In this document: positions 1,917 through 2,941 of the stretch, in pieces
How the letters are laid out: each line of letters begins with the position of its first letter
How positions within the stretch are numbered: position 1 is the stretch's first letter
Virus record (IMG/VR): IMGVR_UViG_2529292736_000004
Strand: one strand, 5' to 3'
Length of the DNA stretch: 37,226 nt
Origin: a virus
Taxonomy: Duplodnaviria > Heunggongvirae > Uroviricota > Caudoviricetes
Notes under the pieces: generated by a model
What the model saw: the letters and a program-made list of their open reading frames with translations, nothing else
The model's database searches: none
What the model was told of the DNA's origin: nothing
Position numbers and translations under genes: made by a program

Positions 1917-2498
1917 ATGAACAACTCATGGTGGCAGGAACTAATGCATTTTTTCCTGCAAGGAATGACACTTAAACAGTTGATTCATATGCTAATCATC
2001 CTGATCATATTGATTATTGTTATGCCGGTAAGCGTAAAAGAATGGATAAACCTGCATAATCCAGAAATCCTTCCTTATTATTGGATGTATTACATCCTGT
2101 TGTTCTGCGTTAGCTATGTGCTTAACGGTGTTGTTAATTCCGCTTATCACGCTGTGACTGAAAGAATTGAGGTATCCGCTGCTCAGAAGCGCAAATCTAA
2201 AGAAGAAAAATATGTGCAAGATTTGTTTGATTCGTTAACTCTTGGAGAAAGAGCGTATTTGGCATTCGCTGTAGCCGCGAATAACCAGCTAAAGACAGAA
2301 AAGGGAAGCCCTGAAGCAATCTCATTGCTCGAAAAAGGGCTTCTTATTCGGATACCTTCTGCTACTGGATATCCTGAAATCGACCGTTTTGTTATCCCGG
2401 AACGCTATAGAAATGAGTGCTACATTCGGTTTGCCGGGAAGGCAGACAGCCTTATGGATGAACTTATCGCTCAGGATAAGCATGGCAAAAACAAGTAA
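1917..2498 (+). CDS. sieB: Superinfection exclusion protein B (SieB), P22-like, membrane protein
   Basis: 193-aa ORF with a hydrophobic N-terminus (LIHMLIILIILIIVMPV) transcribed opposite to the pL operon between ral and N, as sieB is. The sequence resembles P22 SieB from memory and is unlike lambda SieB. Confidence 0.7.
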   Translation: MNNSWWQELMHFFLQGMTLKQLIHMLIILIILIIVMPVSVKEWINLHNPEILPYYWMYYILLFCVSYVLNGVVNSAYHAVTERIEVSAAQKRKSKEEKYVQDLFDSLTLGERAYLAFAVAANNQLKTEKGSPEAISLLEKGLLIRIPSATGYPEIDRFVIPERYRNECYIRFAGKADSLMDELIAQDKHGKNK

Positions 2499-2514
2499 TT
2501 AGCAAATGAATTTA

Positions 2515-2787
2515 TCATCTCGCCGTCAGTTGTTTTGATTTCCGGTAGCCTGCCGCGTAAAGAGCTACGTTCGGAAGACAAGTTGAACCTTCATATTTTC
2601 TGGTCAACGTTGTCAGAGTTATCACTTCTGCTCTCATTGCTGGTTTGCGCTTGCATTGCAAGACCACTCGTGAAGGGGTTGGCCTGTGTAGCTTGTCGGA
2701 GCTGATCGCCTCCTGACTTTGCAGATTTGCGCGACGAGCTCTACGGCGAGAAGCTGCGGTGCCTTTAAATTCTGTTTTTCTGGACAT
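2515..2787 (-). CDS. N: N-type transcription antiterminator (P22 gene 24-like), about 90 aa
   Basis: Arginine-rich motif SRRRARRA near the N-terminus; C-terminus ...LPNVALYAAGYRKSKQLTAR resembles P22 N. Start taken at the ATG at 2787 with GGGAGGA 6 nt upstream; the track ORF extends further. Confidence 0.75.
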   Translation of the reverse strand: MSRKTEFKGTAASRRRARRANLQSQEAISSDKLHRPTPSRVVLQCKRKPAMRAEVITLTTLTRKYEGSTCLPNVALYAAGYRKSKQLTAR

Positions 2788-2886
2788 GGATTCCTCCCGA
2801 ATAAACTTTGGCGATGCAATCTCGAAGCTCCTCCTGAGACGATTGCTTCGGCATTGCATCCCACAGCTTATGTGGTTGGGTGATCT

Positions 2887-2941
2887 GGCTTTTCAGCCAC
2901 GTAGTCGAGAGTCGACGTTGTTTAAAGAGCCTGCCAGTCTG
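2887..2941 (-). promoter_or_regulatory. Putative nutL (boxA plus boxB)
   Basis: Minus strand reads GGCTCTTTAAACAA (boxA-like) followed about 18 nt later by the hairpin TGGCT-GAAA-AGCCA. Same architecture as the nutR candidate at 5575..5619. Confidence 0.5.

Follow-up and report, generated by a model that had tools for sequence, protein, structure and literature searches.

In the window, i.e. the whole 37,226-nucleotide stretch of DNA analysed, the early regulatory region of a lambda-like prophage combines a sieB gene of the P22 family with an N antiterminator gene and two nut sites, and is flanked by early-left genes of lambda type (Table 1). All the features noted in the preliminary description of this DNA are present in the sequence where it placed them. 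The lambda-type segment carries kil together with cIII, ea10, ral and a gam fragment; these genes had been read as lambda, and the 98.7% nucleotide identity bears this out. The lambda match ends at 1896, and neither the lambda sieB nor the lambda N is present in the window. A permissive Rfam search of positions 1-12000 yields a single match, the lambda cIII thermoregulator at 834-892; Rfam has no nut or boxB family.

Table 1. Features of the early regulatory region, with window coordinates, strand and basis of assignment.
Feature	Coordinates	Strand	Basis or remark
Lambda-type early-left segment	525..1896	-	98.7% nucleotide identity to lambda 33109-34480 over 1372 nt
gam 5' fragment	525-648	-	cut by an IS
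cIII	715-879	-	within lambda-like segment, together with kil
ea10	952-1320	-	within lambda-like segment
ral	1503-1703	-	Ral 100% amino-acid identity to lambda
Conserved block upstream of sieB, left recombination linker	1800..1897	+	P22-annotated sieB promoter region
sieB, superinfection exclusion protein B, P22-type, 193 aa	1917..2498	+	Pfam SieB, PHROG 1301
N antiterminator, 90 aa (likely start, ATG at 2787)	2515..2787	-	Pfam N_peptide; VT2-Sakai identity
nutL boxB UGGCU-GAAA-AGCCA	2886..2899	-	5-bp stem, GNRA tetraloop
nutL spacer hairpin GUCGA-cuc-UCGAC	2904..2916	-	read from sequence, folding
nutL boxA GCTCTTTAAACAA / GCUCUUUAAACAA	2918..2930	-	same position as boxA annotated in HK140, HK620
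Probable pL promoter, TTGATC, 17 nt, TACTAT	2977..3005	-	sequence and upstream regions of Louie, HK97, lambda
cI repressor, VT2-Sakai/Stx2 II immunity type	4578..5273	-	Pfam HTH_3 and Peptidase_S24
cro, VT2-Sakai/Stx2 II immunity type	5348..5563	+	Pfam HTH_3
nutR boxA CGCTCTTTGTAACAA / CGCUCUUUGUAACAA	5574..5588	+	read from sequence
nutR spacer hairpin GGAC-auuc-GUCC	5590..5601	+	read from sequence, folding
nutR boxB UCGCU-GAAA-AGCGA	5606..5619	+	5-bp stem, GAAA loop
Candidate tR1 hairpin UAUGCGU-uucc-ACGCAUA	5649..5666	+	conserved in 933W, HK97, POCJ13

The switch from lambda-like to P22-like sequence falls within the left linker, which is near-identical in lambda, P22, HK140 and the window, with lambda diverging at ~1881-1897, and which corresponds to the annotated sieB promoter region of P22. 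The sieB gene itself matches Pfam SieB (E 7e-25) and PHROG 1301 (E 1.5e-122), and the P22-like character claimed for it stands: the protein is 84.8% identical to the P22 SieB (191 aa), compared with 22.7% for the lambda SieB. As in P22, the gene lies on the plus strand between ral and N, and the internal Met25, which is the Esc start in P22, is conserved. Judged by family, position, internal start and promoter block, this is a predicted SieB/Esc exclusion gene of the P22 type. For the segment that runs from ral through sieB into the 3' part of N, HK140 covers 1339-2581 at 98.1% and P22 covers 1523-2578 at 86.6% (nucleotide), making HK140 or a similar E. coli phage its nearest source; direct import of this segment from P22 is rejected on the same figures. 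None of N, SieB and the two rex-position genes has a match in NCBIfam.

The N open reading frame extends mechanically up to 2859, and a longer, 114-aa version is annotated in several GenBank records. The ATG at 2787 is preceded at 4 nt by a Shine-Dalgarno sequence, GGGAGGA, and N genes of 273 nt are annotated in ev207, POCJ13 and phiSTEC1589; a start at this ATG is likely, and the gene is placed accordingly here. The protein matches Pfam N_peptide at 111.9 bits (cutoff 27.9) and PHROG 271 at E 4e-25; a sequence search against all PDB chains gives no match even at E = 10. Its arginine-rich motif, GTAASRRRARRANLQSQ, spans residues 9-25; the protein contains SRRRARRA and ends in ...VALYAAGYRKSKQLTAR.

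Together with sieB, N had been described as P22-like, and this holds for one end of the protein. The last 20 residues agree at 17 positions with the tail of P22 gp24 (...LPGVALYAAGHRKSKQITAR), but overall identity to gp24 is 38.8%, and the arginine-rich motif matches lambda at 9 of 17 positions, P22 (GNAKTRRHERRRKLAIER) at 6 and the 933W class at 5. The tail matches 933W even better (19/20) and is common to 933W, HK97, HK620 and HK140, so it is not diagnostic of P22. The comparison of closeness to lambda and to P22 thus gives a split answer, with sieB nearer to P22 and the N motif nearer to lambda. The protein has 100% amino-acid identity to its counterparts in VT2-Sakai (Sp5), Stx2 II, the Stx1-converting phage of Morioka V526, Nil2 and 1717. 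By sequence, it is a known allele of the VT2-Sakai/Stx2 II/Nil2 type, not of the P22 type. It reads as a protein made of three kinds of sequence: the lambda-like motif, a short central segment with an EAISS..LHRPT.SR block common to 933W, HK97 and H-19B-type N, and a C-terminal tail common to P22, 933W and HK620. The last 66 nt of the gene (2515-2580) form a conserved right-hand recombination linker, the only part of the window N that 933W, HK97 and HK620 have in common with it at the nucleotide level. The P22 homology ends at 2578, so that ~75% of N and nutL derive from a different source; nucleotide identity to Stx2 II is 93.2% over 2515-3221 and 95.8% over 4580-6041.

Both nut candidates had been described as a boxA followed after about 17-18 nt by a hairpin with a GAAA loop, and both (nutL 2886-2930, nutR 5574-5619) hold up, with spacings of 18 nt in nutL and 17 nt in nutR. 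The first lies 3' of the probable pL and 5' of the N ATG, and the second between the cro stop (5563) and the cII start (5705). Folding energies of -7.1 and -6.5 kcal/mol set the short hairpins apart from shuffled sequences (z = -4.6 and -2.8), whereas the whole 66-nt nut regions fold no better than shuffled ones (z = -0.9 and -0.7); only the short boxB hairpins stand out. The stems of the two boxB elements differ by one compensatory G-C to C-G swap, and the motif CUACG-U.GCU-GAAA-AGC.A is common to both regions. In 7 distinct variants found in nature, pairing of the boxB helix is complete (100%), and 2 of the 5 pairs show compensatory change, the count being limited to the tetraloop class because MAFFT misaligned the 3' and spacer arms when loops were mixed. 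The nutL spacer hairpin is kept in natural variants with fully different stems (GGUGA...UCACC and GAUUC...GAAUC), and that of nutR has compensatory variants of its own (GGGC...GCCC and GAUUGC...GCAAUC).

The locus thus holds the N profile, two canonical nut sites and a boxA with a compensated boxB that characterize a lambdoid N/nut system, and it is predicted to encode one, with binding, use of Nus factors and actual readthrough assigned by homology. On this basis, the pL and pR transcripts would carry nutL and nutR, respectively, and the arginine-rich motif of N would bind a boxB hairpin with a true 4-nt GNRA tetraloop, GAAA. The boxA would recruit NusB/S10, the central part of N would recruit NusA, and the C-terminal tail would engage RNA polymerase, leading to readthrough of tR1 and of the leftward terminators. 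The element assigned as pL is a probable promoter, with a conserved transcript start motif, TCAGCAGGACGC, nearby at 2958-2969; a consensus promoter scan picked up neither pL nor pR. The hairpin downstream of nutR is a candidate tR1, and a putative tR1 is annotated at the equivalent place in epsilon34. A terminator-scan match at 2904-2916 on the plus strand was rejected because the scan had read the spacer dyad of nutL on the wrong strand. Between the two nut sites, the C-terminal domain of cI is lambda-like (94.9% identity to lambda cI over 4578-4988), and homology to phage Louie stops exactly at the end of cro, 5563.

Nearly the whole window is collinear, at 96-97% identity, with the Escherichia phage ev207 (Jouyvirus) and its relatives ev017, 2G7b, PhiR63_2 and PhiR11_1, which share with it the lambda head and tail genes, ral, a P22-like sieB, the 90-aa N, a DUF1828 gene, cI, lambda O/P/ren and a DLP12-like rusA-Q-porin-lysis block. 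Unlike these phages, the window is interrupted by three IS elements, has a frameshifted O and is diverged over 3257-4488. The prophage is defective and, given the IS elements and the O frameshift, the N-nut module may be idle in this host. The frameshift lies at ~6490, where a homopolymer error is possible. In a search of complete E. coli genomes, positions 525-6000 are found at 99.6% in five genomes, and the IS junction at 524/525 is absent from these five.

The preliminary description had called the region a multi-parent mosaic, and the lambda, P22-like, VT2-Sakai-type and DLP12-like blocks are all found. Positions 20691-37226 correspond to lambda 182-16721 at 98.2%, which accounts for the lambda morphogenesis genes that it listed, and the DLP12-like block is equally recognizable (rusA-quuD 98.8%, nmpC 91.7%, essD/rrrD 95%). 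On the early-left side, the matches to lambda, P22 and HK140 stop at 1896, 2578 and 2581, respectively. Very probably, the region is the early regulatory module of an ev207-like lambdoid prophage, built by recombination at short conserved linkers, with the N motif and the tetraloop boxB as a matched pair. The lambda-type kil-cIII-ea10-ral segment would have been joined, at the conserved block with the sieB promoter, to a sieB cassette of the P22 family, and this cassette in turn to a VT2-Sakai-type N-nutL-pL-cI-cro-nutR-cII block within the last 66 nt of N. A catalogued N with two matching RNA targets and a P22-like exclusion gene amounts to ordinary phage mosaicism, and the module is already known with respect to the N allele, the sieB family and the mosaic joints, which are those of a known phage type.

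The closest N/nut system is that of the VT2-Sakai-type Stx phages, which shares with the window the boxA, spacer hairpin and boxB sequences of both nutL and nutR; these phages also belong to the cI/cro immunity type of the window (93-96% nucleotide identity). These phages differ from the window in having another gene between N and ea10, no ral or sieB, other genes in the rex position, and podovirus-type (Sepvirinae) late regions in place of the lambda morphogenesis genes. The nut sites of the H-19B/933W/HK97 type resemble those of the window in boxA, spacer hairpin, the CUACG sequence and the 5-bp boxB. The spacer hairpin of H-19B-type nut was reportedly named the ‘reducer' by Neely and Friedman (2000). 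From 5573 on, the nutR region of HK97 and 933W is 89-90% identical to the window, but its loop is GACAA; this pentaloop occupies boxB in both nut sites of the type, the N protein is 127 aa long with the motif GNSRSRRRERLKAKAL (5/17 to the window), and the 933W-type nutL lacks the good boxA present here. Two hairpins have been reported for the nutR of H-19B (PMC3526286).

A comparison of the boxB candidates with the nut sites of P22 had also been suggested, and the resemblance fails at the boxB loop, which is GACAA in both P22 sites and GAAA here; the P22 nut sequences also have no obvious spacer dyad, unlike the window. Lambda shares with the window the gene order and the positions of the sites, and, of the classical phages, it has the motif closest to that of the window N (A..RRR.RRA..Q.Q). 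The lambda boxB loops (GAAAA/GAAGA) are one base longer, the stem sequence differs and there is no spacer hairpin, whereas the window N has no equivalent of Trp18 and a C-terminal half unrelated to that of lambda N. The N of the Salmonella phage epsilon34 (gene 43) has a motif of the same class as the window (10/17), with GAAA in both nut sites, and a ‘novel BoxB specificity' was predicted from its divergent N-terminus in the genome paper (PMC2629481). This phage differs in its 120-aa N with a long, 933W-like central region, its P22-like virion and its immunity type. In literature searches, no experimental work on VT2-Sakai-type N or on a natural tetraloop boxB was found, the epsilon34 prediction being the only relevant statement.

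The suggestion that the nut sites co-vary with the N allele is borne out across phages. In a sample of 240 IMG/VR contigs, 146 have a readable N, and in all 146 the loops of nutR and nutL are consistent with each other and with the motif class of N, although many of these loci are near-clonal, so that the count overstates the number of independent events. All 61 loci with a GAAA nutR have a 4-nt GNRA loop in nutL and a tetraloop-class motif, and all 85 loci with a GACAA nutR have GACAA in nutL and a 933W-class motif. Four cro clusters hold both classes, and in each of them the motif tracks the loop, not the cro type. The nutL site lies directly beside N and would be carried along with it.

Individual phages show the same agreement. 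HK97, 933W, HK106, BP-4795 and ST2-8624 combine the motif GNSRSRRRERLKAKAL with GACAA loops at nutL and nutR alike, and in the window and Stx2 II the loop is GAAA at both sites. POCJ13 and phiSTEC1589, with another cI/cro and an N that is 84% identical, have GCAA in nutL and GAAA in nutR; epsilon34 combines its long N, with the motif GSAAGRRRERRAALQ, with GAAA in both. Phage Louie has a cI/cro like that of the window (92.7%), but a lambda N and the lambda boxB in both nut sites. The association of N motif class with boxB loop is strict, while leaving room for cross-reaction between the classes. The motif class and the tetraloop boxB appear to be a matched pair, distinct from the GACAA and GAAAA/GAAGA pairs. 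The GACAA pair is that of P22, HK97, 933W and H-19B, and the GAAAA/GAAGA pair that of lambda.

Three other readings of these data can be weighed against this one. If N and its nut sites were of the P22 gene 24 type, with the specificity of P22, and had entered alongside sieB from a P22-like phage, then the nucleotide homology to P22 that extends unbroken from ral across sieB to the 3' part of N (1523-2578, 86.6%), the match to the gp24 tail (17/20) and the membership of both proteins in the Pfam N_peptide family would be readily accounted for. This reading is very improbable and, for the RNA-binding part, already contradicted: identity to gp24 is just 38.8% overall, the motif is closer to lambda (9/17) than to P22 (6/17), the loops are GAAA and not GACAA, the P22 homology stops at 2578, leaving ~75% of N and nutL from elsewhere, and N is 100% identical to that of VT2-Sakai. 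Less probable still is the notion that the hairpins are not N targets at all, but arose by chance or belong to terminators or RNase III sites within the leaders of the pL and pR transcripts. The window contains four other perfect 5-bp GNRA hairpins, and a match of the terminator scan, on the opposite strand, falls on the nutL spacer dyad; however, the two hairpins lie 17-18 nt after a boxA in the canonical places (pL to N and cro to cII), lack a U-run, share one motif with compensatory stems that tracks the N motif across phages, and occupy sites equivalent to those annotated as nutL and nutR in 933W, HK106, HK620 and epsilon34.

More weight, albeit still on the unlikely side, goes to a neutral difference between GAAA and GACAA, with the VT2-Sakai-type and 933W/H-19B-type N proteins forming one specificity group and the association resulting from linkage and shared ancestry. 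Between the two classes, the nutR flanks are indeed 89-93% identical, a similarity that takes in the boxB stem as well as the spacer hairpin; the two types of N have the FKG..SRRR start in common, along with the EAISS..LHRPT.SR block and the C-terminal tail, and many of the loci are clonal. Against this, there is no exception among the 146 loci, and the association is kept inside the four cro clusters where recombination has separated N and nutL from cro; N and nutR are 2.7 kb apart, with an independently exchanged segment between them, as in Louie and POCJ13. The motif also differs between the classes at 12 of 17 positions and, in the P22 complex, the looped-out C of GACAA contacts the peptide (PMC12550061), which makes the absence of this C from GAAA a plausible specificity determinant. 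The stronger proposal, namely that the VT2-Sakai/epsilon34-class motif, G[TS]xx[SGA]RRR[AE][RH]RA.LQ, with a GNRA tetraloop boxB (GAAA/GCAA) would be a fourth natural specificity class, orthogonal to those of lambda, P22/H-19B and phage 21, has roughly even chances of being correct.

For the annotation of this genome, the value of these findings is routine, the window being a decayed prophage of a known phage type; the label that needs correction is that of N, which is not a P22 N but a protein of the VT2-Sakai type whose RNA-binding motif is lambda-like and whose tail is common to P22. Even where the intervening immunity genes are swapped, the motif of N and the loops of the two nut sites remain matched. 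The tetraloop boxB RNA is, in effect, the classical pentaloop minus its looped-out base. Should the tetraloop class indeed have a specificity of its own, nature would provide a fourth N-boxB pair, which could serve as an orthogonal peptide-RNA tether for RNA-tethering tools and as a natural test of the contribution of the extruded base. The tetraloop pair is common in Shiga-toxin phages, in which N-dependent readthrough precedes toxin expression, and the same module is present in isolated phages, including ev207, ev017, 2G7b and PhiR63_2.

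Both nut sites of the window have a boxB loop of four bases, G-A-A-A, closed by a U-A pair, i.e. a canonical GNRA tetraloop. The nut coordinates of the preliminary description proved accurate when checked in the sequence; the P22-type boxB is not matched, as the P22 loop is GACAA, compared with GAAA in both sites here. In the P22 complex, the C of GACAA is looped out and touches the peptide (PMC12550061). The lambda loops, GAAAA and GAAGA, differ from that of the window as well. Compared with shuffled sequences, the short hairpins are stable (z = -4.6 and -2.8). The boxB stems of nutL and nutR are distinguished by one compensatory G-C to C-G exchange, and in both sites the motif CUACG separates boxB from the spacer hairpin.

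Features of the left part of the window, the nut sites and two genes downstream of the lysis block
Feature	Position	Strand or direction	Sequence or basis
IS21-family istB, end portion	186-467		Pfam IstB_IS21 (E 5e-30, C-terminus)
Small genes, set	between istB end and sieB	leftward	ORF list
sieB	1917-2498	rightward	Pfam SieB
N	ORF end at 2515	leftward	Pfam N_peptide, 111.9 bits (cutoff 27.9)
nutL boxB	2886-2899	minus	UGGCU-GAAA-AGCCA
nutL spacer hairpin	2904-2916	minus	GUCGA-cuc-UCGAC
nutL boxA	2918-2930	minus	GCUCUUUAAACAA
Two genes in rexAB position of lambda	3225-4531	leftward	ORF list
cI-like repressor	4578-5273		Pfam HTH plus S24
cro	5348-5563		ORF list
nutR boxA	5574-5588	plus	CGCUCUUUGUAACAA
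nutR spacer hairpin	5590-5601	plus	GGAC-auuc-GUCC
nutR boxB	5606-5619	plus	UCGCU-GAAA-AGCGA
Candidate tR1	5649-5666		conserved hairpin
cII	5705-6001		Pfam CII
O, P, ren	after cII, rightmost of this part		lambda-like
KilA-N/ORF11CD3 protein	15174-15671
DUF1398 (ybcV-like) gene	16520-16945

From 5573 on, the nutR region shares ~89-90% identity with HK97 and 933W in pairwise comparison, and a wider search gives ~91-96% across HK97, 933W, HK106 and other phages. These relatives share the boxB stem UCGCU/AGCGA and the spacer hairpin with the window, so that, with GAAA in place of GACAA, the nutR of the window is that of HK97/933W with one base removed from the loop. Unlike the window, the HK97/933W-type relatives carry GACAA in nutR and nutL alike, together with the N motif GNSRSRRRERLKAKAL. 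Two hairpins have been described for the H-19B nutR, which is of the HK97/933W type (PMC3526286).

The suggestion that the nut sites co-vary with the N allele holds up among IMG/VR contigs. Two exact nutR versions were used in the scan, with 120 contigs each, and wherever N was within reach, its motif was read along with the hairpin of nutL. Where nutR carries GAAA (61 such contigs), the nutL loop is always a 4-nt GNRA and the N motif always fits G[TS]xx[SGA]RRR[AE][RH]RA.LQ (in ten variants); where nutR carries GACAA (85 contigs), nutL likewise has GACAA and the motif is of the 933W type, without exception. Many of the sampled contigs are close relatives, and nutL, which adjoins N, would hitch-hike with it. 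For 59 of the 120 tetraloop contigs, the upstream sequence yielded no N bearing the YAAG[YH]R tail; either the contig is too short or the C-terminus of N is different. When the loci were clustered by the 3' portion of cro, taken as the 260 nt preceding nutR, both loop classes were present in 4 of the 24 clusters, and in all four the motif follows the loop, not the cro type; the cro type of the window itself comprises 37 tetraloop and 4 pentaloop pairs. The nut anatomy and this pattern of matched pairs can be read directly from the sequences. The association between N motif and loop holds, yet it is not proof, and cross-reaction between the classes would be compatible with it.

The individually known phages show the same pairing. 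Louie has a window-type cI and cro (92.7%), with the homology ending exactly at the cro stop (5563), but differs from the window in that its N and the boxB of its two nut sites are those of lambda. POCJ13 and phiSTEC1589 differ in cI/cro, have an N that is 84% identical, and carry GAAA in nutR and GCAA, still GNRA, in nutL. The N of epsilon34 is long (120 aa) and its motif belongs to the window's class, with GAAA as the loop of nutL and nutR; in BP-4795 and ST2-8624, the 933W motif goes with GACAA in both sites. A ‘novel BoxB specificity' has been predicted for the epsilon34 N from its divergent N-terminus (PMC2629481), and the GenBank record of this phage labels a GAAA hairpin as the putative nutR boxB. 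The N proteins of HK620 and HK140, with the motif NARNRRRARRQAQREQ, are accompanied in both nut sites by the boxB UCCCGC-CGAAAU-GCGGGA, with a six-base loop containing GAAA, apparently a further N/boxB class.

Seven distinct tetraloop boxB variants have a 100% paired helix, with compensatory change at 2 of the 5 pairs. The spacer hairpin, reportedly named the ‘reducer' by Neely and Friedman (2000), is retained despite complete replacement of its stem (GUCGA, GGUGA, GAUUC, GGAC, GGGC or GAUUGC). Its flanks, ACAA(C/U)G before and CUACG after the hairpin, are near-invariant across the IMG/VR loci L017-L256 (2900-2917 on the minus strand and 5589-5605 on the plus strand of the window), a pattern that fits a hairpin serving only to bring the two flanking motifs together. 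Tetraloop nutR sites (loci L017-L136) have many more boxA and spacer variants than pentaloop ones.

By homology with the N proteins of lambda, P22 and H-19B, the N motif would bind boxB in the nascent RNAs from pL and pR, boxA would bind NusB/S10, the central region of N would bind NusA, and its C-terminal tail would bind RNA polymerase, which would then ignore tR1 and the leftward terminators. As in P22, sieB would be read rightward from its own conserved promoter block and would probably yield SieB and a shorter Esc from Met25.

The reading of N as P22-like stands for the C-terminal tail and fails for the rest. Of its last 20 residues, 17 match P22 and 19 match 933W, compared with 22 and 34, respectively, of the other 70. 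Identity is 38.8% to P22 gp24 and 34.6% to lambda N, the latter in the arginine-rich stretch only. The motif AASRRRARRANLQSQEA has, out of 17 residues, 9 matches with lambda, 6 with P22, 5 with 933W/HK97, 10 with epsilon34 and 14 with POCJ13, and the central part retains the EAISS..LHRPT.SR block of the 933W type. These matches indicate that N is a composite, in which the RNA-binding motif is lambda-like, the central part is short and the C-terminal tail is widely shared. Among 50,697 phage records searched in translation, proteins with 100% aa identity to it occur in VT2-Sakai, Stx2 II, the Stx1-converting phage of Morioka V526, 1717, the PA series and others.

The mechanically called N ORF starts at 2859 (114 aa). 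The true start is probably the ATG at 2787 (90 aa), because GGGAGGA precedes it, it aligns with the start of the HK97 and 933W N, the motif is then N-terminal, as in all studied N proteins, and the records of ev207, POCJ13 and phiSTEC1589 annotate 273-nt genes. Several GenBank records have upstream-extended forms (114 aa in Stx2 II, 149 aa in BP-4795) and others the short form; the extensions, which would bury the motif at least 24 residues inside the protein, are likely start-site misannotations in the VT2-Sakai-type and BP-4795 records.

To map parentage, the window was compared by BLAST with the complete genomes of lambda and P22 and with a set of further phages. The proposed lambda early-left flank is borne out: 525-1896, spanning the 5' part of gam, kil, cIII, ea10 and ral, corresponds to lambda 33109-34480 at 98.7%, ending just upstream of sieB, and Ral, also confirmed by Pfam, is 100% identical to that of lambda at the amino acid level. 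The Rfam lambda cIII thermoregulator is matched in full (834-892, minus strand; 88.5 bits, E 6e-21), as expected for a lambda-type cIII leader. SieB is indeed P22-like (84.8% aa identity to P22 SieB versus 22.7% to lambda SieB). The P22 homology extends from inside ral to 2578 at 86.6%, but the E. coli phage HK140 matches 1339-2581 at 98.1%, so that direct import from P22 is rejected in favor of a P22-family ral-sieB-N3' module circulating in coliphages. Given the matches to Stx2 phage II (2515-3221 at 93.2%, 4580-6041 at 95.8%), the N-nutL-pL/oL and cI-cro-nutR-cII blocks are of the VT2-Sakai immunity type. The sieB cassette is bounded by a ~95-nt block upstream of sieB, near-identical in lambda, P22, HK140 and the window, and by the last 66 nt of N (2515-2580), 91-98% identical in 933W, HK97, HK620 and HK140; short conserved sequences at both joints are the usual mode of lambdoid mosaic joining. 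Sequence comparison also confirmed the DLP12-like and lambda morphogenesis blocks.

The two overlapping genes in the rexA/rexB place, DUF1828 (258 aa) and DUF6978-like (180 aa), lie between cI and a terminator common to lambda (3099-3226). In the same order, they show weak matches to the two components of PDC-M24, a candidate defence system of PADLOC (E 5e-7 for B and 4e-4 for A), and may be a defence pair encoded by the prophage; the version in ev207 is diverged.

At the sequence level, nothing in the window is new: Escherichia phage ev207 (Jouyvirus) is collinear with all of it at 96-97%, the ral-sieB-N arrangement recurs in ten phage records, and 525-6000 is matched at 99.6% in five complete E. 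coli genomes. The sole remaining point of interest is the experimental behavior of the tetraloop class, for which no experimental characterization was found in the literature searched.

The prophage is decayed. The 3' end of an IS21-family element (1-524) abuts lambda-like sequence at 524/525, cutting gam after ~41 codons, a junction absent from all 5,426 complete E. coli genomes searched. An IS3-family element (12428-13736), with HTH_Tnp_1 and rve ORFs and TGAACCGCCCCGGG as its terminal inverted repeat, separates the nmpC-like porin gene from that for the holin; ev207 and DLP12 lack it at this point. An IS66-family element (17609-20690; TnpA-like, TnpB and TnpC, Pfam DDE_Tnp_IS66 E 2e-102), flanked by the 8-bp target duplication GAATGAAC, separates cos from the nu1 start. 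The lambda-type O (6034-6932) is split into two ORFs at ~6490 by a one-base deletion in an A-run relative to lambda and ev207 (AAAAGAAAAAAG to AAAAGAAAAAG); the frameshift may be genuine and inactivate the gene, or it may be a sequencing error in the homopolymer. The stretch that follows the lysis genes (14783-17059) is unlike ev207 and only 83% similar to lambda and DLP12.
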